Source of the DNA: an uncultured Bacilli bacterium
GTDB taxonomy: Bacteria; Bacillota_I; Bacilli_A; RFN20; CAG-826
Reading direction: 5' to 3'
Length of the DNA stretch: 64,000 nt
NCBI GenBank assembly: GCA_934162685.1
Contig: CAKPJO010000001.1
Span: 30,602-94,601, forward strand
Shown here piece after piece: positions 10,197 through 27,187 of this stretch (position 1 is its first letter; the number at the start of each line of letters is the position of its first letter). Under the pieces are notes generated by a model. That model did not search any database. It was not told the DNA's origin and saw only the letters and a program-made list of their open reading frames with translations. Position numbers and translations under genes: made by a program.

Positions 10197-11081
10197 ATGA
10201 AAATTAGTAATAAAACTTATAATGTATGTAGTCACTTTATACATTTATTTGAATCATTTGATTATAAAATAGGAAGTATTATTCTACGTAGGAATGAAGA
10301 CAGAGAAACAAATTTTTATGAAATTAGTTTATCTTTTTCGGGCAAAGATAATTCTAATAAACAATTTCAAACATCTGTATCAATGATTGATGAGGAAATG
10401 CATACAATATTATGTAAAAGGAGCAGAGACTTTTTGATATGTGATGATGTAAAAAGTTTACGTTTTCATTTTAATAATGTCCCATCTTTGTCTGATATTG
10501 AGAAGTATCTTTTAACACAGCTCTTTAATTATTATCATATAACAGAGGGAACGATTATGAAAAAAAGTAATCATCTTATCATTAAAACTAAAAATCCTTT
10601 TGAAGGAATAGAAACTGACATTGAAATAAATTTGTCTTTAAAGCCATTAAAAGACAATAATTTTAAAGAGCTGGAAGAAGAATATGAATATTTTATTGAG
10701 GATTTAGATTTAGGAGAAGATACAAGAAAAGCAGCATTGTTAAATCAAACGTTGTCAGCGTGCGATTGTATTTATCAAAATGGAAGAGTTCTCTATAAAG
10801 GCAATTTTAAAATTTCATTTAGTGAATTTTTAGATAAAGATAATGTTTTTATTCATTGTAAAACAAGAGATGACTTTGATTTCCTTATGGATAAATTAAT
10901 GGAAGCAACTCCTGGTAATATATTCTATAATGTTAATAAAGGCATCGAGGGTGTTTGGTATGATTATGGTGAAGATAGCTGTGTTAAAAATGATGGAACA
11001 GGGATGAAATACGAATATTGCAAAGCTTCAAAAAACAATTATGCTATTTATGAATTTGACGAATTAGATTTTAGTAAATAA
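10197..11081 (+). CDS. hypothetical protein with a C-terminal (A)IHCxT...YEFDELDF domain (family member 1)
   Basis: RBS AAGGAG. C-terminal ~90 aa is similar to 11098, 11395 and the 25823 C-terminus. Confidence 0.55.
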   Translation: MKISNKTYNVCSHFIHLFESFDYKIGSIILRRNEDRETNFYEISLSFSGKDNSNKQFQTSVSMIDEEMHTILCKRSRDFLICDDVKSLRFHFNNVPSLSDIEKYLLTQLFNYYHITEGTIMKKSNHLIIKTKNPFEGIETDIEINLSLKPLKDNNFKELEEEYEYFIEDLDLGEDTRKAALLNQTLSACDCIYQNGRVLYKGNFKISFSEFLDKDNVFIHCKTRDDFDFLMDKLMEATPGNIFYNVNKGIEGVWYDYGEDSCVKNDGTGMKYEYCKASKNNYAIYEFDELDFSK

Positions 11082-11097
11082 TAAGGGCAATAAAAAT

Positions 11098-11379
11098 ATG
11101 AAAATTAAATTAACTGAATTTTGGAATAGTAAAGAAAATCTTGCTATTCATTGCAATACGAAAGAAAAAGCAAATGAATTATTAAAAGCTTTTGATAGGC
11201 TTGGTAAGAAATGGAGTAATGGTATGAGTTATTTGGATGTTGATTATTATACTCTTGATTATGGTCTTTACTATAGGAACACTTGTTATTCAAATCATAA
11301 TAAATTTCATGGATATTCAAATTATAAATCACATGACTATACAATTTATGAATTCGAAGATGTTGATTTAAAAAATTAA
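11098..11379 (+). CDS. small protein of the AIHC(D/N)T...YEF(D/E)DVDL family (member 2)
   Basis: LAIHCNTKEKANELL...LGKKWSNG...TCY...IYEFEDVDL. Confidence 0.55.
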   Translation: MKIKLTEFWNSKENLAIHCNTKEKANELLKAFDRLGKKWSNGMSYLDVDYYTLDYGLYYRNTCYSNHNKFHGYSNYKSHDYTIYEFEDVDLKN

Positions 11380-11394
11380 GAAGGAAAAATCAAA

Positions 11395-11691
11395 ATGGAA
11401 AAATTAAATTCTAAAAAGAAAATTACATTAACAAAATTTTTAGACGATTATGATAGAGATTTGGCTATTCACTGTGATACTGAAATACAGGCAAGAATAT
11501 TACAAAAAACAATTCGTAAATCGCTCAAAAAAAGATGGAATATTAAAATATCTGATCAAAAAGATACTTTTTGTAGATGTTATAAACGAGACACCTGCTA
11601 TGACAATGATAATTGCTGTGGATCTCGTGATTGGTACGAAACGATGGGTTATTTAATCTACGAATTTGATGAAGTTGATTTAGATAAATAA
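11395..11691 (+). CDS. small protein of the AIHCDT...YEFDEVDL family (member 3)
   Basis: LAIHCDTEIQARIL...KKRWN...TCY...IYEFDEVDL. Confidence 0.55.
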   Translation: MEKLNSKKKITLTKFLDDYDRDLAIHCDTEIQARILQKTIRKSLKKRWNIKISDQKDTFCRCYKRDTCYDNDNCCGSRDWYETMGYLIYEFDEVDLDK

Positions 11692-11747
11692 AAGACCTCT
11701 TTTATTTAGTGGAACTTGTGCGTAAAAAGCATAAGTTCTTTTTTTAC

Positions 11748-11790
11748 TTGACATTTACAAATATTTATATATAATTTAAGTAAGTAAGAA
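11748..11790 (+). promoter_or_regulatory. sigma-A type promoter P3 (TTGACA-16-TATAAT)
   Basis: Consensus hexamers upstream of the 11804 ORF, homing endonuclease and dnaE part 2 cassette. Confidence 0.55.
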
Positions 11791-11803
11791 AGGGTGATAT
11801 CAA

Positions 11804-12025
11804 ATGAAAAAGATTATTATTATTTGTAACGACAAAGTTATTTCAGAACACGAAACATCAGATGTATATTATGATGCAATGATGAAAGAATGTGAAAGAC
11901 AACTAAATGAAGGAACTCTAGATAGTAGAGTGTTTGAGTTCAATGAAAAAGAACAAGCTAAAATCACTAAATATATAGTGAACAATCTCATATATAAATT
12001 AATAGATAAGAAAGAAGTTGAATAG
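11804..12025 (+). CDS. hypothetical protein
   Basis: RBS AAAGGGTG. Confidence 0.45.
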   Translation: MKKIIIICNDKVISEHETSDVYYDAMMKECERQLNEGTLDSRVFEFNEKEQAKITKYIVNNLIYKLIDKKEVE

Positions 12026-13031
12026 AATGAATTTTGAAAATAGAGAATATAATAAACCTTCGCAAATTGAATATGAAGGTACTTTAACTAAAAATAGGAA
12101 TCAAAGGCCTACTTGTGACCAAAAGTTTTTAGACTGGTGTGTGGCTAATGCAGAACGTTTTAGCTCTTATTATACTATGGCTAAAGCATTAGGACTTGAT
12201 GGCAGGGCTTTTCAACGTTTAATAGAAGATTATAACATTACATTAACATTTGATAGTAAAGCTGCTCATACTCCTAAATTATATCAAGATTATGACTGGT
12301 TATATAATCAAATTGTTACTTTAAATAAGTCTCGTAAGCAAGTAGCTGAAGAAAATGGCTGGACAGTTAGAGTTTTAGAAAAATGGATGGGCATTTTAGG
12401 AATTAATAGAAGAACATACCAAGATTTAAAACAAATGTCTGATAAGCAAAGAGATTTAATTAAATTCTCATTATTAGGTGACGGATGTGTTTCTGATACA
12501 GGATTTTTTATTGTGTCTCATAGTGAAAAGCAAAAAGATTATTTATATTGGAAATATGAAATGTTGAAAGATCTTTGCTCGCATGAACCGACACGATATG
12601 ATGAGAGTGTTAAAATAATTAACGGAAAAGAAGTTAATTGCGAACCATATTATAGATTTAATACTAGAAAATTAAAGGAATTGTTTAATCTTAGAGAAAT
12701 GCCAATAGAACAAATTGTTAATGATTTAGATGAATTTGGTTTGTCAATTTGGATGTTGGACGATGCTAGCCGAGATGCTTCTTGGAAGTTATGTATAGCC
12801 GCTTATCCTGAAGAAACTAGAACATTTATTGTAAATTATTTTAAGGATAAAGGTTTTTTATCTGCTAAAGTAAGGCTATATGATACAAGATATGTGGAAT
12901 TTAATGCTGACGACAGTAGAAAAATAGATGCTATAATTTTGCGTAACATTCCTCACAATTTAGACATTATACAATATAAAATTATAAATAATAGTAGAAT
13001 TAAATCACCAAGGAGGGGAAATAATGGCTAG
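12018..13031 (+). CDS. free-standing LAGLIDADG homing endonuclease with an N-terminal DNA-binding region
   Basis: Two LAGLIDADG-type motifs (LLGDGCVSD, WMLDDASRD). Located exactly at the junction that splits dnaE; overlaps both neighbours. Confidence 0.7.
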   Translation: MNRMNFENREYNKPSQIEYEGTLTKNRNQRPTCDQKFLDWCVANAERFSSYYTMAKALGLDGRAFQRLIEDYNITLTFDSKAAHTPKLYQDYDWLYNQIVTLNKSRKQVAEENGWTVRVLEKWMGILGINRRTYQDLKQMSDKQRDLIKFSLLGDGCVSDTGFFIVSHSEKQKDYLYWKYEMLKDLCSHEPTRYDESVKIINGKEVNCEPYYRFNTRKLKELFNLREMPIEQIVNDLDEFGLSIWMLDDASRDASWKLCIAAYPEETRTFIVNYFKDKGFLSAKVRLYDTRYVEFNADDSRKIDAIILRNIPHNLDIIQYKIINNSRIKSPRRGNNG

Positions 13032-14583
13032 GCGTCTTTTCCTAGATTATGTCTGGGGAAAATGCATTCAACCACAAGTAGGATACGCCTTTTCTTTGCC
13101 GCACGATATTAGTTATTCTATAGAAGCCGTCCAAGAAGCTAATTTAGCAACAAGATATAACCCTCTTTTTTGGGAATGTGCTTGCCTTTGTATCAACGCA
13201 GGAAATACGGAAACAGGATTTGAAGAAGACGATGATGAAGAGCAAGACGAGGAAGAAAAGAAAACTAAATCAGGAGCACCATCATATGGTAAAATTTCAA
13301 AAGCTTTAACCGATTGTAGGCTTCACGGTGTAAATATTGAATTTCCAAACATTAATACATCTCAAGCAGATTTCGTTCCTGATATTGAAAATAATAGTAT
13401 TTTATATAGTTTAAAGACTGTTACAAATGTGAGCGATGATTTATATTCACAAATCATTCAGAATAGACCTTATTCATCAATAGAAGATTTCTGTTCTAAA
13501 GTATCTGTTACACCAGCACAAATGTCCAGTTTAATTAAAGCTGGTTGCTTCAATTCTTTATATAAGATGTCAAGACGAGCAATTCTCTATGCTTATTTCA
13601 ATTATTTAGCAAATCAAGAAATAATCCTTAAAAAAACATTGAACTTATCTCATTTAAAGAAAGCTTTGTCTCTTGGTGAGAAATTTCCAGGTTATGAAGA
13701 TAAAATTCAATTATTATATTTTAAAGTATACATTGATAAAAATCAAAAATTAGATCCTAGTAAAGAGGCATTCTCACTTAATGCTTTATTAAATAAGAAA
13801 TGTTATAAACTCACGGAAGAATCTTGCATCAGCTTTTTCAATATGAAAGTTGCGCCTTCATTAGATTTAAGAAAAGGTGATTATGATTATTTAGATGGAC
13901 ACACAATATTATTAAAAGCATCAAGCTTTACAAAATTCTATGATGCTCAAATGAAAGAATTAACTGATTATCTAAATTCTGAACAAGGTAAATTAGTATT
14001 TCAAAAAATGGAAAAAGATGCTTTTATAAAAGATCTTATTGAAAAATACGCAGAAGGAACCGAAGCTGACTGGGATATGCAAACAATGAATTTTTATCAA
14101 TCTGAACACGCACTTGCTAGAATGTCCGAAATAAAGTATAACATTAAGAATTTTAATAAATTACCAGAAACGCCTATAACACGTAAGTATATAGGTAAAG
14201 ACGGAGAAGAAAAAGAGACAGCTGAAACTTGTGCAATATGTGGTACAGTTGTAGATGCTAATAATGTTAAACACGTGGTAAGTTTATTAACTAAGTATGG
14301 AGTGGTTAATGTTAAATTATTCTCACAAGCATATTCTAATTTTAGTCAAAAGATAAGTATTGTTGAAGATGCCGCCAAAAAGAAGAAAACAGTTTTAGAC
14401 GACTCTTGGTTTAAAAGAGGAACGAAATTAATTATTCACGGGTTCAGAAGAGAAAATATGTTTGTTGCTAAAACTGAATATGTTAATAAAGTTCCTAAAA
14501 TGGTAGGATTAATAGAAAGTTTAGATACAAACGGAAATGCTTCTATTAGATACACAAGAAAGAAGAAAATTAGTCAAGAATAA
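13024..14583 (+). CDS. dnaE: DNA polymerase III alpha (DnaE-like) C-terminal cistron; fingers/HhH/beta-binding region
   Basis: [32 protein letters not shown] aligns with DnaE [46 protein letters not shown] aligns with GLKILPPDINSG. Continues the alignment where 3721..7479 stops. Confidence 0.75.
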   Translation: [519 protein letters not shown]

Positions 14584-14600
14584 CACTTGACTTTTTCTTT
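14572..14600 (+). terminator. intrinsic terminator whose 3' arm is the -35 of P4
   Basis: AGTCAAGaataacaCTTGACT plus T5. Confidence 0.6.
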
Positions 14601-14625
14601 TATTTATATATAATATGGAATGTAT
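14587..14625 (+). promoter_or_regulatory. sigma-A type promoter P4 (TTGACT-16-TATAAT)
   Basis: Consensus hexamers, followed by GAAAGAAGG RBS of the helicase gene. Confidence 0.6.
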
Positions 14626-14643
14626 AGAAAGAAGGTATTTTAA

Positions 14644-17064
14644 ATGGCAACAGAACCAAGTAAATTATTAGGTCAAGGAATTACAGCTAAAGTAACCCTT
14701 AACAACTATCGTTTTCCTCGTTATGGACACGAATCTGGCAAGTATGCTATTGTTTTATTAAGAGTTGAAAAATTATTGGAAGGAGAAATTCCTGATGATT
14801 TTAAAACCATTATGGGAGAATATGTTATTGTAGCAACAGGAAATATGCCTAAATTAAAAGAAGGCGTTGAGTACAATTTCATGGGAACTTTAACCAAGAA
14901 TAATAAATACGGGCTTCAATATGAAGTCGTCTCGATGCATTTAGATTATAATTTAGAAAATAAAGAAGATCAAAGAAAATTCTTCAGTTTCTTCATGACT
15001 GATAGACAAATAGATTTATTATTTGAACAAGTGGAAGATCCTATTGCTTGTTTAAGAAATAAAACAGTAGAAGAGCTTTTAAAAGTAAAAGGTATAGGAC
15101 CTGTAACAGCGCGCAGAATGTGTGAACGATATGAAGAATGTAAAGACAATAGTAGAGCATATGTTGAATTAAAACAATTTGATTTAACAAAACGTGCTAT
15201 TGATCGTTTAATTAGTCAATACGGTTCTGCTGATGTTGCGGTTGAAAAAGTAATCGGTAATCCTTACATTTTAATTAAAGAAGTTAGAGGTTATGGCTGG
15301 AAAAAAGCTGATGAAATCGCTAAAAGACAAGGATTTACAAATGATTGTAAAGAAAGAGTATTGGCATATGCACAATATTATTTAGAAACACAAGGAGATC
15401 AAAATGGTAATTCTTGGGTATCTATTAACGATTTATGTTCAAATGTGGCCGCTGAATGTGTACCTGTGTCAAATGAAAACTTAGTTAATTGGTTGAAAGA
15501 GGTTATGCTTCCAGATAGTTTATATACTGAATTTTATAATGAAAAATATTTTAATCATAATGATAAAGTAGAGGATCCAAAAGCTTGGTTATATTTTGAC
15601 CAAAAGACAAGAGAAGTTGGATTATTAAGCATTAAAATTCTAGAAGATGAAATTGCGCGTCATTTACAACGAATTAAAAACGCTGAACCTGTCTTTAAGT
15701 ATGATAAAGAAGAATGTCAAAAGATTATCGAAGAAGTTGAAGAAGAACAAGGTTTTAAATATACAAATGAACAAATTAAAGCCATTTGGATGATGCTAGA
15801 TAATAACATTGGTATCTTAACAGGTTCTGCTGGTACTGGTAAATCTAACACATTAACAGCTGTTGTGCGTATATTCGATCATTATGATATGAGTATTAAA
15901 CAATGTGCTTTATCTGGTCGTGCGTCAAGTAAATTAACTGAAATTACTGGTGTTGAAGGTAAAACTATCCATAGATTATTAGCTTATTCAACTGATGCAG
16001 ACCAATTCTCATTTAATGAAAGAAGACCTTTACACGACGATTGTATTATTCTTGATGAAGCTTCAATGGTTGGAGGGGAACTATTCTTATCATTAATTAG
16101 TGCGGTTAAAAACGGTGCTAAATTCATTATGGTAGGAGATATTCAACAATTAGAATGTATTGGATTATGTAATGTTTTAAAAGACTGTTTAACGTCAGGT
16201 TATATTCCTTCTGTGATGTTAAGTAAGATCCATCGTCAAGCGGCTAAATCTGGTATTATTTCTCAATCTTTAAGAGTATCCGCAGGAGAACCTTTAGTTC
16301 AAAATACATTTGAAGGAACCGAAACTCGTGGAGATTTGTTAGATTTTCATATCATTGCATCTAATGATAATAGAATGACACAAGAAAATATTATTAATAG
16401 ATTTAAAGAATTATATTTCAATCGTAGAATTTCAGCAGAAGATATTCAAGTATTAGTTCCTATGAGAGTTCGAGGAGATATTTCTTGTAGAGCTTTAAAT
16501 GAAGTTATTCAATCAATTGTAAATTCTACAATGACATTTAATGCTGTTACGGTTAAATATCTAGATAGTGGAACTAAATATGAGGTTACTTATAAACCAC
16601 GTGACCGTGTAATTGTAACACGTAATAACTATAAAGCATTGACACCTAATGGTAAAGAAGTTGCTATTTTTAATGGTAATGTTGGTTACATTAAAGATAT
16701 TGATATTAAAGAAAGATCTATGACTATTGTGCTTCCAGAACAAGGAGAAGTCATTCTTGGAGAAGAACAATGGGGTGATATTCAATTGGGATATGCTATT
16801 ACAATCCATAAAAAACAAGGTGACAGTATTCCTTATGCAATTATAGGTTTAGATACTAGTTGTTATGCTTTATATTCAAAAGAATTAGTATATACAGCAA
16901 TCACTCGTGCAAGGACAGATTGTACACTTGTAACACAAGCTAAAGCTATTAATCAAGCTGTTAAAATCAGTCGTATTAGAACAAAACAAACTTGGTTAAA
17001 AGAGTCTTTAAAGAAATTATATATGAATTCAATGGAAGCAATAACAGGTCACAATAATGATTAA
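14644..17064 (+). CDS. RecD-like SF1 DNA helicase with an N-terminal HhH region
   Basis: Walker A GSAGTGKS, Walker B ILDEASMV, VGDIQQL, TIHKKQGDS, YTAITRAR. HhH VKGIGPVTARRM. Confidence 0.8.
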   Translation: MATEPSKLLGQGITAKVTLNNYRFPRYGHESGKYAIVLLRVEKLLEGEIPDDFKTIMGEYVIVATGNMPKLKEGVEYNFMGTLTKNNKYGLQYEVVSMHLDYNLENKEDQRKFFSFFMTDRQIDLLFEQVEDPIACLRNKTVEELLKVKGIGPVTARRMCERYEECKDNSRAYVELKQFDLTKRAIDRLISQYGSADVAVEKVIGNPYILIKEVRGYGWKKADEIAKRQGFTNDCKERVLAYAQYYLETQGDQNGNSWVSINDLCSNVAAECVPVSNENLVNWLKEVMLPDSLYTEFYNEKYFNHNDKVEDPKAWLYFDQKTREVGLLSIKILEDEIARHLQRIKNAEPVFKYDKEECQKIIEEVEEEQGFKYTNEQIKAIWMMLDNNIGILTGSAGTGKSNTLTAVVRIFDHYDMSIKQCALSGRASSKLTEITGVEGKTIHRLLAYSTDADQFSFNERRPLHDDCIILDEASMVGGELFLSLISAVKNGAKFIMVGDIQQLECIGLCNVLKDCLTSGYIPSVMLSKIHRQAAKSGIISQSLRVSAGEPLVQNTFEGTETRGDLLDFHIIASNDNRMTQENIINRFKELYFNRRISAEDIQVLVPMRVRGDISCRALNEVIQSIVNSTMTFNAVTVKYLDSGTKYEVTYKPRDRVIVTRNNYKALTPNGKEVAIFNGNVGYIKDIDIKERSMTIVLPEQGEVILGEEQWGDIQLGYAITIHKKQGDSIPYAIIGLDTSCYALYSKELVYTAITRARTDCTLVTQAKAINQAVKISRIRTKQTWLKESLKKLYMNSMEAITGHNND

Positions 17065-17086: not shown

Positions 17087-17665
17087 ATGGATTATGTTAC
17101 ATCAGATTTACATTTTAGACACAATCGAATTATTATATTTGAAAGAACTCAATTTAAAACCGTTGAAGAACACGATCAATATATTATAGAACAATGGAAT
17201 TCAGTTATTCAAGATCACGATAGAGTATTTGTGTTAGGGGATCTTGGATTTAAGCCTTTTGCAGATTTAGGTAAACTTGTTAAGCAATTAAAAGGACATA
17301 AAATTTTAGTTAAAGGAAATCACGATCAAATGGTTGTGGGAGACGCAATTAATATGGGTTTTGAAATGATGTATGACCATCCTATTTATTATAATACACA
17401 CATAATATTATCTCACGAACCTGTAAAAGAAGCGTGGGATAATCCTTATGTTTATAATATTCACGGGCATTGTCATAACTTTCAAACTATTGACGCACCT
17501 AATTTTGTAAATGTTAATATTGCCACCACTGATTATAAGCCAATTCCTATGGCACAATTTGTATCTAAAGCTAATTTAAGATGTAAATCAAGAAAAGAAA
17601 AATGGGAAACCGAATGGTATTGTCCATATTTATTAAAAAAAGAGCAAGATAGTCGCAATAAGTGA
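17087..17665 (+). CDS. calcineurin-like metallophosphoesterase
   Basis: Motifs DLHF, VFVLGDLGF, VKGNHD, IHGHCH. Confidence 0.7.
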   Translation: MDYVTSDLHFRHNRIIIFERTQFKTVEEHDQYIIEQWNSVIQDHDRVFVLGDLGFKPFADLGKLVKQLKGHKILVKGNHDQMVVGDAINMGFEMMYDHPIYYNTHIILSHEPVKEAWDNPYVYNIHGHCHNFQTIDAPNFVNVNIATTDYKPIPMAQFVSKANLRCKSRKEKWETEWYCPYLLKKEQDSRNK

Positions 17666-18045: not shown

Positions 18046-19296
18046 ATGGCAGAAGAAGAATACAAGCGTGCATTAGCACATGTCGAAAAAGTAGTAGATA
18101 TTCAACCTATTGAAGGAGCAGATCGAATTGTTCTTGCAACTATTTTAGGTTGGAAAGTAGTAGTTAAAAAAGATGAATTTAAGGTAGGAGATTTAGCAGT
18201 TTATGTGGAAATTGACTCTGTTTTACCTGCCGATGATGTGAGATTTGAGTTTTTAAAGAGCAAAGATTATCGCATCAAAACAATGAAACTAAACAAATTC
18301 AAAGTGTTTAGTCAAGGAATTGCGTTCCACGTTAACGAATTTCCAGAAATTAAAAATCCTGCTGAAGGAATGGATGTGACAGAGGTTCTAAAGATTACGA
18401 AATATGAACCATATGAACCACCAGTTAAATCTCTTTCTTACAAAGAAGCTAAAAATAAGAGAATGTTTGCTCGACATCCTAAATTTTTCCAAAGTAAATT
18501 TGGTAAATTTGTCAGAAAACATCCTACTTTATTAAAGATATTTGAACATTTCTGGGGCGGCAAAAATATTAAACCTAAGAAATTCCCTGATTGGATTAGA
18601 AGAACTGACGAAATCAGATGTGAAAATATTGCAAATATTTGTTCTTATAAAAAACCGCTTTTAGTAACGTGTAAAGTTGATGGTTCAAGTACAACTTTTG
18701 CATTAAGATTTAAGAATGAAAAACATAAGAAATATGAAATATTTGTATGTTCTCGTAATGTGCGTATGTTAACCGAAACACAATCTTGTTACTTTGAAAC
18801 AAACGTATATTATGAAATGTTTAAAAAATATGATGTTGAAGAATTCTTAAAGGCAACAGCAAATCTGTTACAAGCAGACTTTGTTATTTTACAAGGTGAA
18901 ACATATGGCGATAAATTACAAGGAAATCCTTATAAAATGGATTATGTTGATTTTAGAGGTTATAACTTAATTTATGGTTATATGGAAGGAACAAAGCAAT
19001 TTAAAGCAAATGTTAATAACCCACTATATCATAGAGTAGGAGACACTATTCAAACACGCATCAATAGTATTAAAGCTAAAGAAATGTGTGAAATTCATGA
19101 TATTAAATGGGTTCCAATTTTAGAAGAGAACTTCATTCTTCCTGATACAATGGAAGAATTAAAACAACAAGCTACTGGAGCATCAGTTATTAATCCTAAA
19201 GTATTAAGAGAAGGACTTGTTTATCGTTCAACGACTGATCCAGAGTTCTCATTTAAAAATGTTTCAAGAGAATATTTACTAAGCAAGGGGGAATAA
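18046..19296 (+). CDS. ATP-dependent RNA ligase-like protein (nucleotidyltransferase KxDG family)
   Basis: Motif I CKVDGSS, motif IV-like REGLVYR, C-terminal Lys motif; N-terminal nucleic-acid-binding-like domain. Confidence 0.55.
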   Translation: MAEEEYKRALAHVEKVVDIQPIEGADRIVLATILGWKVVVKKDEFKVGDLAVYVEIDSVLPADDVRFEFLKSKDYRIKTMKLNKFKVFSQGIAFHVNEFPEIKNPAEGMDVTEVLKITKYEPYEPPVKSLSYKEAKNKRMFARHPKFFQSKFGKFVRKHPTLLKIFEHFWGGKNIKPKKFPDWIRRTDEIRCENIANICSYKKPLLVTCKVDGSSTTFALRFKNEKHKKYEIFVCSRNVRMLTETQSCYFETNVYYEMFKKYDVEEFLKATANLLQADFVILQGETYGDKLQGNPYKMDYVDFRGYNLIYGYMEGTKQFKANVNNPLYHRVGDTIQTRINSIKAKEMCEIHDIKWVPILEENFILPDTMEELKQQATGASVINPKVLREGLVYRSTTDPEFSFKNVSREYLLSKGE

Positions 19297-19300: not shown

Positions 19301-20485
19301 ATGTGGCATAGAAAGAATTCTGTCTATTTAGACGGAGCTTCTAATACCCCTGTTGATCCAAAAGTATTTAAAGCAATGCGTCCATATTTAACTGGGCGCT
19401 TTGTTGGTAATACCGCTTCAACACATGAATTTGGTGAAAAAGCATTTACAGTATTAGAGACTGGTAGAGATAAACTAAGTAAATTAATAGGATGCGAACC
19501 TGATGAAATTTATTTCACATCTGGAGCAACCGAAGGTAATAACTGGGTTATTCAAGGATTAGCGTTGCACGAAAAAATTTATAATAATATGAAAAAAAAC
19601 CATATCATTGTATCTTGTGTGGAACATTCTTCTATATTAAATACTTGCAAAGAACTTGAAAAATGGGGTTTTGAAGTTGATTATTTACCAATTAATAAAA
19701 AGCGTGGTGGAGTTGTCACCGCTGCAACTTTAAAACAACATTTGAGGCAAACAACTTTATTAGTATGTATTATGGCGGTCAATAACGAAATTGGTTCTAA
19801 TAATACCATTGCTGCTTTAGGAAGAGTGGTACAAAAGAGTAATGCTTTCTTCTTATGTGATTGTACTCAAGCATTGTCATATGGTGGCAAAGATATGAAA
19901 ATAGCAGAAAGATTTTATAACATTGATTATTTAACTTTCTCAGGACATAAGATATATGGTCCAACTGGGACAGGTTGTTTAATTGCTCGTAAAAGAGCTC
20001 CATTATATTGTATGATACACGGAGGATCTCAAGAAAGTGGTTTGCGGGGTGGAACAATTAACTTAGTAGGTGTTGTAGGTTTAATAGAAGCTTATTCGCA
20101 AATGTCTAAACATGATTATTTTGAACATTATGCGTCATTATATGAATATCTTTTAAAAAGAATTAAAGAAGAAAATTTGCCTATTGTTCTGAACGTGGAA
20201 CCAACAGTTTATTCAATTATTAGTATCAGATTAGAAACCGATAAAATAGCTTTTTCTGAAAATTACACATTTGCTGATGCGCTAGCGGTACAAGGAATTG
20301 CTTGTTCTTCCACCTCAGCTTGTGATGAAAAAGATCCTGATGAACATCATTTGTCTCATGTATTAAAAGCTTTAGGTTTGTCAAACTTGGATATTGCACG
20401 ATCTGCAAGATTATCTTTTACAAAATATAATACTACAAAAGACATAGATTTATTAATAAAAGCGGTCAAAAAAATCATTGCTTAA
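19301..20485 (+). CDS. cysteine desulfurase (class V aminotransferase, NifS/IscS/Csd-like)
   Basis: PLP-lysine motif SGHKIYGPTGTGCL, HSSILNTC, C-terminal active-site region SSTSACDE. Confidence 0.7.
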   Translation: MWHRKNSVYLDGASNTPVDPKVFKAMRPYLTGRFVGNTASTHEFGEKAFTVLETGRDKLSKLIGCEPDEIYFTSGATEGNNWVIQGLALHEKIYNNMKKNHIIVSCVEHSSILNTCKELEKWGFEVDYLPINKKRGGVVTAATLKQHLRQTTLLVCIMAVNNEIGSNNTIAALGRVVQKSNAFFLCDCTQALSYGGKDMKIAERFYNIDYLTFSGHKIYGPTGTGCLIARKRAPLYCMIHGGSQESGLRGGTINLVGVVGLIEAYSQMSKHDYFEHYASLYEYLLKRIKEENLPIVLNVEPTVYSIISIRLETDKIAFSENYTFADALAVQGIACSSTSACDEKDPDEHHLSHVLKALGLSNLDIARSARLSFTKYNTTKDIDLLIKAVKKIIA

Positions 20486-20497
20486 AAACAGTTAGAA

Positions 20498-20540
20498 AAT
20501 GCTAGAAAATTTTCAAAAATAAAAAAACTCTAGCATTTTC
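20498..20540 (+). terminator. hairpin terminator (AATGCTAGA...TCTAGCATT)
   Basis: 9-bp stem with a long loop and a short T-run. Confidence 0.4.
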
Positions 20541-20599
20541 ACATTATTTTAATAAAACTATGACAAAAATAATATATTTATTATTTTTATAAAAAACAC

Positions 20600-20645
20600 T
20601 TGATTTTAAAAATTATTTTGCTATAATAAATAGTGAAGAAAGGAG
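20600..20645 (+). promoter_or_regulatory. sigma-A type promoter P6 (TTGATT-17-TATAAT-AAATAGTGAAG)
   Basis: Family consensus. Confidence 0.55.
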
Positions 20646-20656
20646 ATTAAAATTTT

Positions 20657-21268
20657 ATGGGATTAGACATCGGTTTTAGAGTATGGGACAAAACTCCCGA
20701 AGGCAGATTAGTCGAGCATAAGTTATCGGAGGCTGACTACTGGAATTCTGGTTCTTGTGGTAGATGTGAAATGAACTATGCTTGGAATTATGGATGCAAG
20801 GATGATTATGAAAAAAAGATTTATTCTTCACCTGTGTTTTCTAAAGAGTTTGACGGATATTCACAAACAGAAGATGATTCTGTTGGAAACAGCTGGACCA
20901 ATAAATATGTATATGTTGACTTTGAAGATTTTAGAAAAGTTATTAATGCTAAAATTGAACAAGTTGAGAAAGAACATTCTGATTGGAGCCTTCGTTTATT
21001 AAGAGAGCAAGCTAATATGAAACACGAAATCAAAGAGTATCGTGACCTTCAATTAAAATGCACTGAAGCAAATGCTTATGCCTTCGATCGTTTCCAAGAA
21101 GAGATTAATAAACTTAAAGAAGCAATTGCATATAGTGAAGAAACATATCGTAATCTTGATGAAGAAGATTATGATTATTCAAAAGCTATGGCTTGCAAGC
21201 GTATGCTTGAATTAATGGACAAGTTTATTAAAGAAGGATATGTCGTTACAACATATTATTCTGATTAA
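20657..21268 (+). CDS. hypothetical protein with a coiled-coil C-terminal half
   Basis: RBS AAGGAG. Confidence 0.5.
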   Translation: MGLDIGFRVWDKTPEGRLVEHKLSEADYWNSGSCGRCEMNYAWNYGCKDDYEKKIYSSPVFSKEFDGYSQTEDDSVGNSWTNKYVYVDFEDFRKVINAKIEQVEKEHSDWSLRLLREQANMKHEIKEYRDLQLKCTEANAYAFDRFQEEINKLKEAIAYSEETYRNLDEEDYDYSKAMACKRMLELMDKFIKEGYVVTTYYSD

Positions 21269-21305
21269 TAAATAGTAAAAAACAAAAAAGGAGAATTGTA
21301 ATTTA

Positions 21306-21788
21306 ATGAGTCGTAAACGTTTTGATGATGATGAAGATTTCTATGAACCTCGTAACAAGAAAAAAACTAAAAAAGGTCGCACAGGACTAGGAGAGCAATT
21401 TGCTAGCATCAATGAGAATACCGAAGATGTATTTGAAAATACTAACACTGTAACATTTGGAAGATTTTGTTCTAACGATCAAAGAAAGAATAAAACTTTC
21501 GTACAACCTGCTCCTGCTCCTAAAAAGGTTGAAACTCCAAGATACTCCCCTCAACCTAATAAGACACCTATTCCTACTAACATCTTAAGAGTTAACAACA
21601 GAGACATAGATCTTACAACTGCTAAAGGCATCTTTAAACAACCTGACGAGTTATCATTATTAATTAAATATAATGATGGTTCAGAAGAAGTTATATCTTT
21701 CAAAGATAAGAACTTCACAACAAAGATGTTCTATAGAGCATTAGGTTTCATTAAAAATCAAAAAAGAATTAATAAAGAGAGAAAGTAA
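21306..21788 (+). CDS. basic hypothetical protein
   Basis: RBS AAGGAG; lysine-rich N-terminus. Confidence 0.5.
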   Translation: MSRKRFDDDEDFYEPRNKKKTKKGRTGLGEQFASINENTEDVFENTNTVTFGRFCSNDQRKNKTFVQPAPAPKKVETPRYSPQPNKTPIPTNILRVNNRDIDLTTAKGIFKQPDELSLLIKYNDGSEEVISFKDKNFTTKMFYRALGFIKNQKRINKERK

Positions 21789-21807
21789 AAATTCTCTCTT
21801 TTTTTTC
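21776..21807 (+). terminator. intrinsic terminator (AGAGAGAA...TTCTCTCT plus T8)
   Basis: Stem plus long T-run; runs into the P7 -35. Confidence 0.65.
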
Positions 21808-21850
21808 TTGACTTTTATAAATAATCCGCTATACTAGTATTGTAAATCAA
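21808..21850 (+). promoter_or_regulatory. sigma-A type promoter P7 (TTGACT-16-TATACT)
   Basis: Family consensus. Confidence 0.55.
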
Positions 21851-21904
21851 AAAAAGTGCTAAATAAAATTACCATTTTATTTTAGCGGAAAGGAAGGAAA
21901 ATTT

Positions 21905-22093
21905 ATGTTATTTATACTTTTATTAGATCTGTTAGTGGGACTTGCAATTATTTTATTGTTACCTGCTGTAGCAATCTTATGGATAGGAGCGTTCACAGCT
22001 ATACCTGCATGGCTTAATATTACTTGCTTGTCTGTTATCACTTTTATTTCATTAATAATTTTAATTGGCTTATTGGTGTCTGATCGCAACTAA
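21905..22093 (+). CDS. small hydrophobic membrane protein
   Basis: RBS GGAAAGGAAGG; two TM segments. Confidence 0.5.
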   Translation: MLFILLLDLLVGLAIILLLPAVAILWIGAFTAIPAWLNITCLSVITFISLIILIGLLVSDRN

Positions 22094-22112
22094 AGAAAAG
22101 AGGAAAACAAAA

Positions 22113-22430
22113 ATGAATGACAATATTATGAAAATTGATGATTTAACAAATACACTTGTGCTTGTGGCTTTTAAAGACAAGACAACAGCAAATGGCTGGT
22201 TAGTACGTGATGATAAGAAAAAAGGAAAATATCTTATTTTATCATGTTTTGATAATAAGATCACCTCTTTCTCTTTATCACACATCAAATATCTTGCTTA
22301 TATAAATGGAGCTTGCTTTTTTAAATACCAAGGGAAAAATATTTTTAAAGTGGTATATATGCCAAATGAATTATCTTACGAGTCATACGGAAAACTTCAA
22401 AGACTTGCAGAAACAGGAGAGTTAGATTAA
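22113..22430 (+). CDS. hypothetical protein
   Basis: ATG at 22113 with AAAGAGGAAA RBS. The ORF-track start 22065 overlaps the membrane ORF. Confidence 0.45.
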   Translation: MNDNIMKIDDLTNTLVLVAFKDKTTANGWLVRDDKKKGKYLILSCFDNKITSFSLSHIKYLAYINGACFFKYQGKNIFKVVYMPNELSYESYGKLQRLAETGELD

Positions 22431-22431
22431 T

Positions 22432-22758
22432 ATGTGGAAATATAATAATGAACGTTTTATAGTGTTAGACACAGGAGATATCATTGATACTTGTTCTTGG
22501 GGTTGCCAAGGCTGGGGAATGAATTATCAAACTAACATAGAAATTAAAGGTAACAAAGTATATGTCACTTACTGGACCGCAGGCGATTATGATTATAATG
22601 ACGAGTTTGATAAACTATTTCTTGGTAACATTGTTTATAGTTCTAATAAACCTTTCTTAGTCAAAGAGTCTGTTCTGTCAAGAACTCCGACAATTACCTA
22701 TGATGAATATAATTTAGACCTATCAGACTTCATAGGAGAGATACGAGGCAATGAGTAA
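22432..22758 (+). CDS. hypothetical protein
   Basis: Coupled (TAATATG). Confidence 0.5.
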   Translation: MWKYNNERFIVLDTGDIIDTCSWGCQGWGMNYQTNIEIKGNKVYVTYWTAGDYDYNDEFDKLFLGNIVYSSNKPFLVKESVLSRTPTITYDEYNLDLSDFIGEIRGNE

Positions 22759-22987
22759 CAAAAGTGTTATTAGCATTCAACCTTCTGAAAAAGAACTCTG
22801 GGATAAAGCTAACGCACAAGGTTATGTGTGGATTAAATCTGATACTGGGTTTATTACAAAAGATGAATTGGATACTTATAGTAGATTAGAAACCGTATGG
22901 TATAAAGTATGGCTACATCAAGAAGACTATGGCTCTAAATGGGCTCTAACAAGGGAGGAGTTAGAAAATGGATACAAACTTAATTAA
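22751..22987 (+). CDS. hypothetical protein with C-terminal W-ALTREELE motif
   Basis: Paralogous C-terminus to 23614..23985. Confidence 0.5.
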   Translation: MSNKSVISIQPSEKELWDKANAQGYVWIKSDTGFITKDELDTYSRLETVWYKVWLHQEDYGSKWALTREELENGYKLN

Positions 22988-23234
22988 AATTGAATTCACC
23001 TACAGGCAATGGGAAACAATATTAGACACTATACAACATGAATATTGGGAAAATAGGGAATTTTATGATGAATTAAAAGCTATTAGTTCCGAATTTTTAT
23101 CAAAGTTAGATGATCGAGGATTAGAAGCATATAAAAATCAATTAAATTATGTGAAAAACATTGTAGAGCAAAAGCAAGAAATCATATCTGTGATTAAAAA
23201 AGAATTAAAGAAAGAGGTATTAAAAAATGGTTGA
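22968..23234 (+). CDS. hypothetical protein
   Basis: Overlapping start. Confidence 0.45.
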   Translation: MDTNLIKIEFTYRQWETILDTIQHEYWENREFYDELKAISSEFLSKLDDRGLEAYKNQLNYVKNIVEQKQEIISVIKKELKKEVLKNG

Positions 23235-23595
23235 AATAATTACTAAAAATAATGAAGTTTTAGGATTTAATTATATAATTTATCCACTGGCATCTGATAA
23301 TTATAAATATGGAATTGCTTGTTTTGATTATGTTAATAGATATAACACATATTTTCTTTTAGAAGATGTTAAATCAGTAAAAAAAACAGTAAAAGATTTA
23401 ACTATTTATGAAATGCAAAAGCTTAACATTTACATGAACACTAATAATGAAATATTTCAATTTGATAAAGCTAAAAATATCTCCACTAAATTAAAAATGA
23501 CTGATTTTATAGATATTAAGCAATGTATTAAAGATTGCTTTAAAAGATTTGAAATGATTTTGACACAAACACAAGATGATTATTATATTGATTAA
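23227..23595 (+). CDS. hypothetical protein
   Basis: Overlapping start. Confidence 0.45.
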   Translation: MVEIITKNNEVLGFNYIIYPLASDNYKYGIACFDYVNRYNTYFLLEDVKSVKKTVKDLTIYEMQKLNIYMNTNNEIFQFDKAKNISTKLKMTDFIDIKQCIKDCFKRFEMILTQTQDDYYID

Positions 23596-23613
23596 TAAAG
23601 AAAGGTAAAAATT

Positions 23614-23985
23614 ATGAAAAGATTAATAAAAAGAACTTTATATGATAGAGAAAAGCATTATGGTTCAATAGAGATTCCTTATGATGATTTAAATTATTTG
23701 AAATTAGTATATGATAAATTAGGTAAAGTAGAAGATATAGAAGAAGAGATTGGTATTGATTTAGTTACTTTGTTCAAAGCACAAATGCAAGACAAAATTT
23801 ATTATAAGGATGTTTTATCAAATTGTAAAATTAAAGGATGTTATGTCGCTTATGGCACAAAAGGTCATATATTAGGAAAGCCTGTATATGCCCTTGTATT
23901 ACATAACAACAATGGCTTCAGTGCTATTGTATATGCAAGTGATTATGGTACAACTTGGGCGTTAACTAAGGAGGAATTAGAATAA
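23614..23985 (+). CDS. hypothetical protein with C-terminal WALTKEELE motif
   Basis: RBS AAAGGTAAAAATT; paralog of 22751. Confidence 0.5.
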   Translation: MKRLIKRTLYDREKHYGSIEIPYDDLNYLKLVYDKLGKVEDIEEEIGIDLVTLFKAQMQDKIYYKDVLSNCKIKGCYVAYGTKGHILGKPVYALVLHNNNGFSAIVYASDYGTTWALTKEELE

Positions 23986-24119
23986 TGTATTTAATAGATT
24001 GGGTTCAAAAATGGGCTGAGATAGAAACAATTGGCGCATATATTAGTTATGGAATATTAGGATTAGCATTAATATTATGTATAATATACATTATTATATG
24101 TTCAATTAATAAATATTAA
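23985..24119 (+). CDS. tiny membrane peptide (44 aa)
   Basis: TAATG overlap with the previous gene, GGAGG RBS, single TM helix. Confidence 0.35.
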   Translation: MYLIDWVQKWAEIETIGAYISYGILGLALILCIIYIIICSINKY

Positions 24120-24135
24120 AAGAGGAGTTAAAATA

Positions 24136-24351
24136 ATGGCTTATTTAAAAGTTTGGATGTTAGATAAAATAATAGTACAATCTGAAATCAGCGATGATTA
24201 CGCAGATCAAATGATAGCTAACTATAAAAAATGTTATGAAAATTATGAAATACATAAAGATAATACTGATGCTGGCGCTTTAATTGAAGACACAGTGTTC
24301 AGATTTAATAATATGCGTGTCATTATAACAAAGGAGGGACCAGAGCGATGA
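24136..24351 (+). CDS. hypothetical protein
   Basis: RBS AGAGGAG. Confidence 0.45.
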   Translation: MAYLKVWMLDKIIVQSEISDDYADQMIANYKKCYENYEIHKDNTDAGALIEDTVFRFNNMRVIITKEGPER

Positions 24352-24542
24352 ATATTCAATGGCAGAATTTATACAATACAATATACAATACGTTAAATAA
24401 GAGACAAGTGAAAGAATTAGCTCTAGCATTAGTAGTTTTACAAGACGGAATTGATAAACTTTCAGAATTAGATAAATTATCTGATATATATAATTTCAAA
24501 GATATGAAAGAATTAGAAAAATTATTGAAAGGAAGCAAATGA
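24348..24542 (+). CDS. hypothetical protein
   Basis: ATGA overlap. Confidence 0.45.
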   Translation: MNIQWQNLYNTIYNTLNKRQVKELALALVVLQDGIDKLSELDKLSDIYNFKDMKELEKLLKGSK

Positions 24543-24967
24543 AAATGAAAAATAAAAAAGAATTATTAAATGATATGCTGTTCTCTTTCAAATATGTGTT
24601 TGTCTATGAAGGATTATTACAGTTAGATGGAAACAGCGATCAACCTTTGCAAAATTGTTGGTTAGTGCTTTTCATCAACAGTCTAAGAGAAGCAAAAACA
24701 GAATATACGGATTATTATACTCTTACTGATTTAAAAAATTTTAATAAACAATTTGAGCAAATAAATGCAATGACAGATATATATGATACTTTCAAAGTGT
24801 TTGATAGACATACTATTATTTGGCAGATGCTAGTACAAATGTTTGGTAACTATGGCGAAAGTCCTAGAACAGGATGGATCGACCAAAAAACCGAATGTGC
24901 TGACTTTTTACAATCGTTGATAACTGAGGATGGAGACGCAAAATGGATAACAAAGAATTTGTTTTAG
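24539..24967 (+). CDS. hypothetical protein
   Basis: ATGA overlap. Confidence 0.5.
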   Translation: MKMKNKKELLNDMLFSFKYVFVYEGLLQLDGNSDQPLQNCWLVLFINSLREAKTEYTDYYTLTDLKNFNKQFEQINAMTDIYDTFKVFDRHTIIWQMLVQMFGNYGESPRTGWIDQKTECADFLQSLITEDGDAKWITKNLF

Positions 24968-25215
24968 AAGTATTAAAAAGAATTCTTCCTGATACCAGTT
25001 GGTGGGGAGAATCTAATCACGATGCAAAATCAATGGAGAATATAGAACTATTAGAGGATATGTTTGATATTATGTTAAACGAACTTTTACAAGATGCCTA
25101 TGTTCCAGAAGGAAATAAAGGAATGAGTAGTTTTGAGTCTATTGCAAAAGCAAAACAAGAAGTTATAGCTAATATCAGATATTGGTTACCAAGCAAAGAA
25201 GAGGATGAAGGCTAG
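24943..25215 (+). CDS. hypothetical protein
   Basis: Overlapping start. Confidence 0.45.
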   Translation: MDNKEFVLEVLKRILPDTSWWGESNHDAKSMENIELLEDMFDIMLNELLQDAYVPEGNKGMSSFESIAKAKQEVIANIRYWLPSKEEDEG

Positions 25216-25756
25216 TATGGAATTTAAAGTAGAAATATTAAAATACCCAAAAGAAGAAGATTTACTTTGGTGTAAACAATGTTGTTTAAATACAATAGGA
25301 AAATCAACAACAAAACAACCTACTGAAGAATGGTTGGTTAAACTTGTAGAGGCTGAGCATAGTCCAATGAGAGAACTTTGGTTTGGCATCAAAATGACTA
25401 TTCCTTACTATATTTCAAATCATTTCATACGCCATCATATAGGGGTTAATCATTATGTTCAATCTCAAAGAAATGATAGACAAACTAATTATGATCGAAC
25501 TAAGGCCCCTCAAGATGCAATGGTAAGTCATATTATGTCTATTAATGCTCAAGAATTGGTATTCATGGCACATAAGAGATTATGCAATCAAGCAAGTCCT
25601 GAAACGCATTTAATAATGCAAACAATCTGTGATGAGGTTATTAAAGTTGCACCTTATATGAAATCGGTTCTTGTACCATTATGTGTATATAGAAACAACA
25701 AATGTACTGAATTCTTCCCTTGTGCAAGAGCAAAAACTTTTAAAAATAATAACTAA
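25205..25756 (+). CDS. thyX: ThyX-like flavin-dependent thymidylate synthase (short form)
   Basis: RHHIGVNHYVQSQR aligns with the ThyX signature RHRxxxxxxQSQR. 183 aa, shorter than typical ThyX; the start may be ATG 25217. Confidence 0.45.
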   Translation: MKASMEFKVEILKYPKEEDLLWCKQCCLNTIGKSTTKQPTEEWLVKLVEAEHSPMRELWFGIKMTIPYYISNHFIRHHIGVNHYVQSQRNDRQTNYDRTKAPQDAMVSHIMSINAQELVFMAHKRLCNQASPETHLIMQTICDEVIKVAPYMKSVLVPLCVYRNNKCTEFFPCARAKTFKNNN

Positions 25757-25786
25757 AGTCAATCAAAACGGTTGACTTTTTTTTAT
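25757..25786 (+). terminator. intrinsic terminator sharing its 3' arm with the P8 -35
   Basis: AGTCAAtcaaaacggTTGACT plus T8. Confidence 0.6.
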
Positions 25787-25815
25787 AATCTTATATAATA
25801 GATATAGAAATGAGG
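25772..25815 (+). promoter_or_regulatory. sigma-A type promoter P8 (TTGACT-16-TATAAT)
   Basis: Family consensus. Confidence 0.55.
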
Positions 25816-25822
25816 TGGCAAA

Positions 25823-27187
25823 ATGCTAACAAAAGAAAAATTAGAAGAAATCGTAAGTAGACCTGAATATGATTTTCTAAGAACTAATCCTCGATTAAAG
25901 GATAAAATCTTATTCTTGACTGTCGGAGGCAGCTATGCTTACGGAACCAATGTTGAAGGTTCAGATATCGACATTAGAGGAGTTGCGATGAATAGCATCG
26001 AAGATATTTTAGGTGGTACAACATTTGAACAATTTCAAAATGATGAAACCGATACAGTTATTTATTCAGTCAATAAGTTTATTAAATTGGTAACTGATTG
26101 TAATCCTAATGTTATTGAAATGTTATTTTGTGAACCTGCTCAATACATTTGGGTATCTCCATTAGGACAATTATTATTAGATAACAAACATCTATTTTTA
26201 TCTCAAAAAGCTTATTATACCTTTGGTGGATATGCTAGAGCTCAATTAAATAGATTAGAAAATGCTTTATGTAGAGGCAATTACTTCACACAGGCACAAA
26301 AAGAAGAGCACATTGCAAGAAGTGTAGAAAATTCTATTGATAGCTTTAGTGAAAAATATTCAGCAATGATACAAGGCAAAGGAAGCATCAAACTTCATAC
26401 TGATAAAGTAGATGAAAATGGCGATAGGATCATCACAACTGATATGACAATGAAAGATGTTCCTTTAAGAGAAGTTCGTTCTATGTTAGAAGAAATGACT
26501 AATATTGTAAGAGATTATGACAAGTCTGGTGGCTGGAGAAATACTAAGAAAGATATTCCGCACTTAAACAAGCATATTATGCATCTAGTAAGACTATATT
26601 ACATGGGTATTGAAATTCTAGAAACTGGTGCTTTACATACTTATAGAAGTAAAGAACATCAATTATTAATGAGCATCAGAAGTGGATTATTCTTAGACGA
26701 AAAGAATAATTTAAAACCTGAATTTTACACCGTATTAAATGATTTAGAAAATAAGTTAAAAACAGCTTTAGATAATAGTAAATTACCTAAAAAAGCTAGA
26801 CGAGATGAAATCAAACAATTACAAATTAAAATTAATTTATTAATGATTAAAATGGGTGCCTATAAAGAATATATCTTGACTGAGTTTGATTTAGATGAAA
26901 AAGAAAAAGTTGTTAATAATAAAAACTATAAAATTACCTTATCTGAAATTTTAAGTATGAACCCAAGCTATACTGCAATTCATTGTGATACCGAAGAAAA
27001 AGCCAATAAATTATTAACAATTTTAAATAAATTAGGACAAAAATGGATTAGTGGAGAATCATATTTAATAAATAACAACTGGAGGTCATACAAAACCCAA
27101 ACTTGTTATGGCTTAGATGGATCATATGGAATTTCTAAATGGTACGATGATGTTTACGAATTCGATGATATTGATTTAAATAATTAA
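25823..27187 (+). CDS. Pol-beta-superfamily nucleotidyltransferase fused to a C-terminal AIHCDT...YEFDDIDL domain (family member 4)
   Basis: NTase signature GGSYAYGTNVEGSDIDI (GS...DxD). C-terminal 90 aa AIHCDTEEKANKLL...LGQKW...TCY...VYEFDDIDL. Confidence 0.6.
   Translation: MLTKEKLEEIVSRPEYDFLRTNPRLKDKILFLTVGGSYAYGTNVEGSDIDIRGVAMNSIEDILGGTTFEQFQNDETDTVIYSVNKFIKLVTDCNPNVIEMLFCEPAQYIWVSPLGQLLLDNKHLFLSQKAYYTFGGYARAQLNRLENALCRGNYFTQAQKEEHIARSVENSIDSFSEKYSAMIQGKGSIKLHTDKVDENGDRIITTDMTMKDVPLREVRSMLEEMTNIVRDYDKSGGWRNTKKDIPHLNKHIMHLVRLYYMGIEILETGALHTYRSKEHQLLMSIRSGLFLDEKNNLKPEFYTVLNDLENKLKTALDNSKLPKKARRDEIKQLQIKINLLMIKMGAYKEYILTEFDLDEKEKVVNNKNYKITLSEILSMNPSYTAIHCDTEEKANKLLTILNKLGQKWISGESYLINNNWRSYKTQTCYGLDGSYGISKWYDDVYEFDDIDLNN

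Follow-up and report, generated by a model that had tools for sequence, protein, structure and literature searches.

What might be the role of a protein domain of about 90 amino acids that is encoded four times in one stretch of DNA, in three tandem genes and again at the end of a nucleotidyltransferase (NTase)? The stretch, hereafter the window, comprises 64,000 nucleotides from contig CAKPJO010000001.1 of an uncultured Bacilli bacterium. The four open reading frames (ORFs) that carry the domain, named A to D, are listed below; E is the expectation value of the match between the domain and a sequence profile.

10197-11081, + strand: copy A, a protein of 294 amino acids, of which the C-terminal ~90 (10809-11075) are the domain, by ORF call and profile match
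11098-11379, + strand: copy B, 93 amino acids, the domain alone (E = 4.8e-39)
11395-11691, + strand: copy C, 98 amino acids, the domain alone (E = 1.1e-30)
25823-27187, + strand: copy D, 454 amino acids, the domain (26924-27187) being the C-terminus of a chimeric NTase (E = 4.2e-29)

The common domain had been proposed in an earlier note, made from the sequence alone, and is confirmed by ORF calls, BLASTP and an independent profile. The four-way alignment of the shared ~90 residues features 14 invariant columns. Composition-corrected BLASTP, with the database size set to 20,000 residues as a small fixed search space, reports 38-39% identity for the pairs formed by B, C and D (E from 7.5e-13 to 9.7e-12) and 26-27% between A and these three (E from 1.6e-4 to 3e-3). 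When the profile is built from database homologs plus B and C, leaving out A and D, both are still retrieved (E = 1.1e-9 for A, 4.2e-29 for D). A merely compositional similarity, which would have undone the claim, is ruled out by these two results. Six-frame profile scans of the window find exactly four copies, and no fifth. The series of motifs originally listed is present in B, C and D, and only in part in the divergent A, which reads FIHCKT, has no LGKKW, replaces TCY by SCV and terminates in YEFDELDF. A hidden degenerate copy in the ~200-residue N-terminal extension of A, prompted by the string 'YEYFIEDLDL', was rejected (hhalign probability 0.25%).

The domain, not recognised when first noted, is a genuine one that the annotation libraries do not contain: in A, B, C and D it is uncovered by Pfam-A, PHROGs v4 (E <= 1), NCBIfam 20 and PADLOC-DB 2 (E <= 0.01), with weak matches (rve, 0.031; PADLOC RT, 0.0039; phrog_1747, 0.087 on D residues 347-405) far below cutoffs. 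Relatives are numerous. A word-indexed search returned 177, mainly unnamed proteins of 86-100 amino acids, and an exhaustive HMMER profile search of 1.84 billion cluster representatives retrieved 2,593 with E <= 1e-3, or 648 when the limit is set at 1e-10. Every library tested misses this family, which is abundant in human-gut Bacillota phages and comprises no fewer than 2,593 sequence clusters, and naming it would clear a recurring 'hypothetical protein' from gut virome annotation.

The family consensus reads KITLxEFW - LAIHCDTEEKAxxLLKAFDKLGKKW - GxSY - variable loop - TCYxN - variable loop - IYEFEDVDL. Among the conserved positions, many of them polar or aromatic, are K3, T5, E8, F9, H19, C20, T22, E23-E24, A26, W40, Y46, Y61, N63 and E82-F83. 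Two variable blocks, prone to insertions and deletions, occupy profile positions 47-58 and 64-79, and coincide with the loops of the structural model that have a low predicted local distance difference test score (pLDDT). H19 is conserved in 87%, C20 in 94% and C60 in 79% of 313 domain instances. Each of the three is individually swapped for T, V, I, R, Y or N in copies belonging to arrays, suggesting buried or structural roles; 'DTEE' may be a helix N-capping box. Catalysis by the domain appears unlikely.

Architecture was evaluated on the 261 family proteins that contain these 313 instances. One copy is present in 227 proteins, while 34 feature 2-5 copies; an N-terminal extension of at least 40 amino acids is found in 70, and a C-terminal extension also in 70. 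The domain may thus stand by itself, be joined to varied extensions at its N- or C-terminal side, or form tandem arrays. Nearly all partner modules have no Pfam match. Exceptions are the AAA_5-type ATPases P0242, P0260, P0298 and P0244, with two or three C-terminal copies, whose AAA_5 matches are weak (E from 1.5e-5 to 1e-2, mostly under the Pfam cutoff), and P0259, where an NTase-like N-terminus (phrog_1614, E = 1.2e-4) is followed by four copies and DUF6378. Of the 70 N-extended proteins, 6 have a recurrent 'YTLEELGL' module placed 4-8 residues before the domain; the module is joined to it in either order across relatives, and also forms the end of the ORF at 9623-10183 in the window. A profile of divergent array copies, used to reach further annotated fusions, gave only 15 matches, none of them new. 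Through the YTLEELGL module, a family of 130-amino-acid ORFs, the AAA_5 ATPases and RNA-repair enzymes, the domain offers an entry point to unannotated accessory genes.

Structure prediction, one of the checks proposed at the outset, gave for copy B a confident model (AlphaFold 2, AF2; pLDDT 88.3, predicted template modelling score 0.81), a small alpha/beta fold. Foldseek finds no structural neighbour in the PDB (best E = 2, template modelling score, TM, about 0.2), so that a confidently predicted fold is left with no solved relative by this search; in BFVD only uncharacterised viral proteins are matched, one of them annotated as DUF551-containing. The conserved Cys of the model lies at the end of a strand, directly before a helix (IHC-DTEEKA), and the weak PDB matches (E 2-10, TM 0.2-0.28) are enriched in thioredoxin, glutaredoxin and glutathione S-transferase (GST) N-domains. 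The domain shares with the thioredoxin-like fold this strand ending in Cys and followed by an N-capped helix, but has C-D-T-E with no CxxC, and no conserved Pro at the TCY strand. Membership in the thioredoxin fold was rejected, with Foldseek E at or above 2, TM at or below 0.28, and both CxxC and cis-Pro missing. Sequence-profile searches of the PDB are marginal only: DbpA motif IV (E = 0.029), eIF4A (E = 2.2) and PPK2 (E = 0.13). The local strand-helix match to these proteins covers 26-52 residues, while motifs V, VI and the P-loop are missing; a DEAD-box RecA2 domain was likewise rejected, as only 26-31 residues around motif IV align, nothing does so downstream, and the domain has 90 residues against ~150.

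The window itself is a segment of a large gut phage. It is about 29% G+C, and none of 50,697 deposited phages is closely related to it at the DNA level; it encodes a RecD-like helicase 28-33% identical to those of large Bacillota phages; the four proteins A, B, C and D are present verbatim, unnamed, on ~139-143-kb contigs of public assemblies. Nearly all other family members also come from phages of uncultured Bacillota (Firmicutes). They are found on IMG/VR viral contigs of 38-117 kb, in metagenome-assembled genomes of Bacilli, Clostridia and Anaeroplasmataceae, and on 130-190-kb gut contigs, where they lie amid small unannotated genes, beside HNH and TnpB genes (L001/L002). The domain is carried by six of the 50,697 deposited phage records, all temperate Ruminococcus gnavus phages, its gene being located between the replication genes and RinA. 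A search for the domain on plasmids gave no match. Restriction of the family to phages, which was to be checked, does not hold strictly: most members are on viral contigs, but P0242 and P0260 are cellular, encoded amid metabolic and housekeeping genes, showing that the family is not strictly viral. Two cellular loci, L027 (4197-9414) and L028 (5332-8670), encode proteins of ~1,100 amino acids in which a DUF6273-like N-terminus precedes an AAA_5-type ATPase and a C-terminal array of three copies. Downstream of the ATPase gene of L027 come a 137-amino-acid ORF and a DUF2201 protein with HExxH-metallopeptidase and VWA features, in a metabolic neighbourhood.

The domain presumably belongs with the promiscuous phage accessory domains, such as Bro-N/KilA-N/ANT, YopX and DUF551, a kinship of type that we propose. 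It shares with these its small size and portability, its occurrence both alone and in combination with unrelated modules, often in several copies per genome, and the location of its genes in regions of small accessory genes beside the replication module. It differs from them in having no Pfam match at E <= 1 and no PDB fold neighbour, and in being nearly confined to gut phages of uncultured Bacillota.

An adaptor for NTase substrates had been suggested in view of copy D, where the domain follows an enzyme. The parts of D that precede the domain are the following.

25823-26850, + strand: body of D (residues 1-343), a RlaP-family Pol-beta NTase by PF10127, phrog_388 and AF2
26851-26923, + strand: deletion junction and linker, with the remnant MGAYKEYILTEFDLDEKEKVVNN of a 'YTLEELGL' module from a former downstream gene

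The assignment to Pol-beta NTases, first made from the GS...DxD motif, which reads GS...DIDIR in D, is borne out. PF10127 matches residues 6-146 and scores 71.5 bits, where the cutoff is 23 (E = 1.1e-19), phrog_388 matches residues 21-339 (E = 4.2e-54), and the catalytic-motif stretch GGSYAYGTNVEGSDIDIRG is invariant in an alignment of 74 sequences. By gathering score and GS...DxD motif, the N-terminal 343 residues, and only these, are a predicted RlaP. The full-length model is confident over residues 1-345, where Foldseek finds generic Pol-beta NTases (HalB, KNTase, LinB); residues 350-368 have a pLDDT below 50, a low-confidence linker, and the domain sits on a flexible tether behind the NTase. 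RlaP extends damaged RNA 3' ends by one or two nucleoside monophosphates (PMC12776372), and in phages it is found together with RNA ligases and CCA enzymes (PMC7824862); the D gene, too, is accompanied by genes for a CCA-adding enzyme and an RNA ligase, as described in phages (PMC7824862, PMC12776372). It differs from the typical RlaP, which has ~340 amino acids and stops right after ...KINLLMIK, by its extra 111 residues.

These residues are a local and recent feature. About 3,375 RlaP homologs were surveyed, the presence of the domain being judged on the best 120 and on the cluster at or above 90% identity to D. Within that sample, the domain is found only in the closest relatives of D, at least 84% identical (P0121-P0131 and other cluster members of 429-454 amino acids); RlaP relatives with identities of 93%, 81% and 71% have lengths of ~350 amino acids, and the cluster of D contains fused and unfused forms together. 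The interval between the RlaP and CCA genes ranges, among relatives, from zero to three ORFs. In locus L034 (94-96% nucleotide identity) a RlaP of 355 amino acids is followed by a separate ORF of 276 amino acids, whose tail '...GMDAYREYTLSELDLEEKEE...NYTITLSEIL...YEFDEVDLNN' corresponds to the linker and domain of D. The window is a net 511 nucleotides shorter than L034, a length (3n+1) that makes up precisely for the +1 shift in frame from one gene to the other, and the deletion joins '...KINLLMIK' to 'MGAYKEYILTEFDLDEKEK...' in D. It removed the RlaP stop codon along with the first ~165 codons of the downstream gene. The 276-amino-acid architecture (N-module, YTLEELGL module, domain) is also present in a separate lineage, L032; this, together with the separate genes of L034, indicates that separate genes are ancestral. 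Judged from these sequences, D is a recent deletion chimera, present in only one phage population. The distribution of the fusion and its junction rule out an evolved NTase adaptor, and the case illustrates how a striking enzyme fusion may be a recent deletion product rather than proof of functional coupling. The broader idea of a targeting or recognition domain survives in part, without the role in D: the domain is a portable module, occurring alone, N-terminally, C-terminally and in arrays, a behavior which would fit recognition or adaptor functions better than an enzyme.

Whether the copies are maintained by selection was evaluated against IMG/VR contig 3300013426_000028 (loci L016 and L024), a relative whose core proteins are 90-98% identical to those of the window. 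Its counterpart of A, A', is a bare protein of 93 amino acids, 59% identical to the domain of A; at the DNA level, A corresponds to A' plus an in-frame segment of ~580 nucleotides (10228-10808), encoding the N-terminal ~200 amino acids. B' is 55% identical to B. C has no counterpart of its own, and B' matches the start of B and the end of C, the signature of an unequal crossover between tandem paralogs. After the NTase fusion, the relative features an additional domain protein, E', of 275 amino acids, bounded by a 63-nucleotide repeat of the 3' end of the domain; the similarity of its N-terminus to a degenerate half-copy is weak and not significant (pairwise E = 0.006, probability 6%).

By the Nei-Gojobori method, synonymous divergence (dS) is 0.19-0.28 for the flanking genes, and 0.56 (D), 0.89 (A) and 0.97 (B) for the domain segments, 2-4 times the background. 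The copies thus have an older ancestry than the genes beside them, indicating that alleles are exchanged by recombination. The ratio of non-synonymous to synonymous divergence (dN/dS) of the domain segments is 0.21-0.32, and the copies are evidently under purifying selection and functional. In the fusion clade, the NTase body is 95-98% identical and the domain 60-78%. Copy number and alleles are thus seen, in these alignments, to shift via recombination between copies. An apparent internal deletion is also found in L032 (5044-5586), where a relative of E', 180 amino acids long and ending in '...YTLNELGIDVEDVNLDK', keeps only the last residues of the domain, a further case of deletion between or within domain copies.

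What the domain may do can be stated in graded terms. It is a portable module of accessory proteins, encoded amid the replication and nucleic-acid genes of gut Bacillota phages. The reading that we favour, on evenly balanced confidence, is that of a non-catalytic module which binds one conserved macromolecular partner. The invariant polar and aromatic positions would contact this partner, and the two hypervariable, indel-prone loops would tune or diversify the contact. Stand-alone copies would bind or block the partner during infection, arrays would raise avidity, and fusions, whether with AAA_5 ATPases, NTase-like modules, DUF6378 or the YTLEELGL module, would let further activities reach that partner. 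The invariance of C19, T21 and E85 in stand-alone proteins weighs against such a non-catalytic role.

The only functional lead to the partner comes from RNA repair. Genes of such a toolkit (phosphoesterase, RNA ligase, RlaP NTase and CCA-adding enzyme) are present in the window, where the region between the tandem copies and the end of the D unit features the following elements.

17087-17665: Metallophos phosphoesterase
18046-19296: RNA ligase with a PHA02142 OB domain
19301-20485: NifS-like class-V aminotransferase
25205-25756: ThyX-like short ORF
25772-25799, + strand: promoter (11/12 match), overlapping a terminator stem-loop (25755-25779) and driving D, the 130-amino-acid ORF and the CCA-adding enzyme
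27208-27600, + strand: 130-amino-acid ORF directly after D, with no Pfam or PHROG match
27607-29073: CCA-adding enzyme, in the same unit as D

The domain could accordingly be an RNA-, tRNA- or nucleotide-binding accessory of phage RNA repair, guiding RlaP, the CCA enzyme and RNA ligases to damaged tRNA; we consider this unlikely. Besides the window toolkit and the known activity and pairing of RlaP (PMC12776372, PMC7824862), it is favoured by P0259, which joins an NTase-like N-terminus to four copies and DUF6378, and by some of the neighbours. A survey of 132 ORFs from 14 independent loci reports replication genes, methylases, sigma factors, YopX and ANT/Bro-N, along with RtcB, two RNA ligases, a T4-type Rnl1 and a Glu/Gln-type tRNA synthetase. 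The synthetase gene lies directly downstream of the domain gene in L013. In L015/L017 the domain gene is flanked by RtcB and RNA ligase genes, and is accompanied by homologs of the 130-, 186- and 123-amino-acid ORFs of the window, three small-protein families that are likewise unannotated (L015 3203-5921; the 123-amino-acid ORF is at 23614-23985 in the window). That these genes recur together in an unrelated phage gives the strongest indication of a functional neighbourhood, which is not a general one: the RtcB and PF09414 ligase matches are confined to that one lineage, and at most of the loci surveyed the nearest 5 kb contain no RNA-repair gene. A general RNA-repair neighbourhood was rejected on this basis and is kept only as a lead. 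The fusion of the domain to RlaP, which at first sight speaks for the same role, is a deletion accident in one population. Copy B is not markedly basic, with 13 basic and 13 acidic residues by hand count, and the helicase and PPK2 matches (E = 0.029 and 0.13), which might point to nucleic acids or nucleotides, are not significant and cover a generic strand-plus-helix unit only.

Stand-alone copies might instead be anti-defence decoys or inhibitors, mimicking or competing with the arrays on cellular AAA_5 plus VWA/metallopeptidase systems, as the earlier note had in part suggested; this appears quite unlikely. The presence of several paralogs, their consensus sigma-70-type promoter and their fast turnover by recombination would fit, as would the triple arrays on the cellular ATPases P0242 and P0260, the DUF2201 HExxH/VWA gene that follows the ATPase gene in L027, and an AAA_5 gene located 1.1 kb from a domain gene on one viral contig. 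The cellular members recall the MoxR-type AAA_5 + VWA pairs, having an AAA_5-type ATPase with two or three copies and, in L027, a DUF2201/VWA gene nearby. The window phage differs, as no AAA_5 or VWA partner was found in the window. PADLOC reports no match for A, B, C, D, P0241 and P0259, and only noise for P0242 (DolB, 5e-4 on the P-loop; PDC-M16A, 6e-3). The literature on DUF2201, AAA_5 and DUF6378 was uninformative, with nothing found on the L027 gene set or marking the AAA_5/DUF2201 pair as a defence system, and the overall dN/dS is below 1.

A related proposal, decidedly improbable in our judgement, is that an undescribed conflict between phage and host turns on the domain as a common recognition element: cellular AAA_5/DUF2201 arrays would act as sensor or bait and stand-alone phage copies, rapidly exchanged and flooding the cell, would compete for the same partner, or both would bind one host hub which the phages have to control. 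If true, it would reveal a decoy module with a new, small alpha/beta fold.

A small thiol-dependent, thioredoxin-like redox or metal-binding protein, using the Cys at the N-terminus of helix 2, the Cys of TCY and the adjacent His, is very unlikely. Among 91 stand-alone proteins C19 never varies, and conservation reaches at least 90% for H18 and C63; the Cys at a strand end right before a helix and the lean of the Foldseek matches also agree with this role, and Thioredoxin_11 is weakly touched in P0259. The matches themselves have E at or above 2 and TM of 0.2-0.28, however, C-D-T-E stands in place of CxxC, and many array copies have T, V or I in the position of one or the other Cys while keeping the rest of the motif, as expected for a buried core. 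Finally, selfish or near-neutral filler, spreading by recombination in hypervariable regions rich in homing endonucleases, is hardly credible: copy number does shift via unequal crossover and deletion, and mobile-element genes lie near several loci (LAGLIDADG here, HNH and TnpB in L001/L002), but dN/dS is 0.2-0.3, the motifs are sharply conserved across 2,593 clusters from distant Bacillota phages and cellular proteins, and the ORFs are intact everywhere examined.

The favoured reading, a non-catalytic binding module, leaves the genomic setting of A, B and C to be described. As first noted, they lie in tandem inside an insertion in dnaE, which proves to be an island of 5.5 kb between two DnaE halves, composed as follows.

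3721-7479: DnaE N-part, from sequence, with an apparent in-frame intein
7478-7499: terminator after the DnaE N-part, at the island start
7507-7534, + strand: sigma-70-type promoter (11/12 match), opening the island transcription unit
9623-10183, + strand: 186-amino-acid ORF ending in YTLEDLGI, immediately upstream of A
11711-11739, + strand: intrinsic terminator directly after copy C, closing the unit
11748-11775: perfect promoter (12/12), after the C terminator
12018-13031: free-standing LAGLIDADG_2 homing-endonuclease ORF (Pfam, 2.5e-14), just upstream of the DnaE C-part
13024-14583: DnaE C-part (HHH_6)

The positions of promoter and terminator show A, B and C to be the last three genes of a predicted self-contained transcription unit between the DnaE halves; given the promoter type, the unit may be transcribed early, by host RNA polymerase. 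The LAGLIDADG_2 ORF is missing from the 94%-identical relative L016, pointing to a recent insertion, and DnaE is split in both phages regardless.

Some further features of the region may be reported. The intein of the DnaE N-part is apparent from the translation, in which ...SRG|CFTEDAQILMGDGS marks one boundary and YIVNGCAVHN|SAMSF the second, and LAGLIDADG-like motifs are found in between. Two overlapping ORFs of the island, 8340-8546 and 8515-8736, encode small paralogs, about 50% identical via an L016 homolog and featuring a membrane-like hydrophobic stretch, and represent another tandem duplication inside the dnaE island. A terminator stem-loop, overlapping or preceding a TTGACT-16-TATAAT promoter, recurs at 7478-7534, 11711-11775, 21774-21835, 25755-25799, 29093-29120 and 30691-30740; these cassettes resemble the mobile cassettes of T4-type phages, and could serve as recombination points for gene shuffling.

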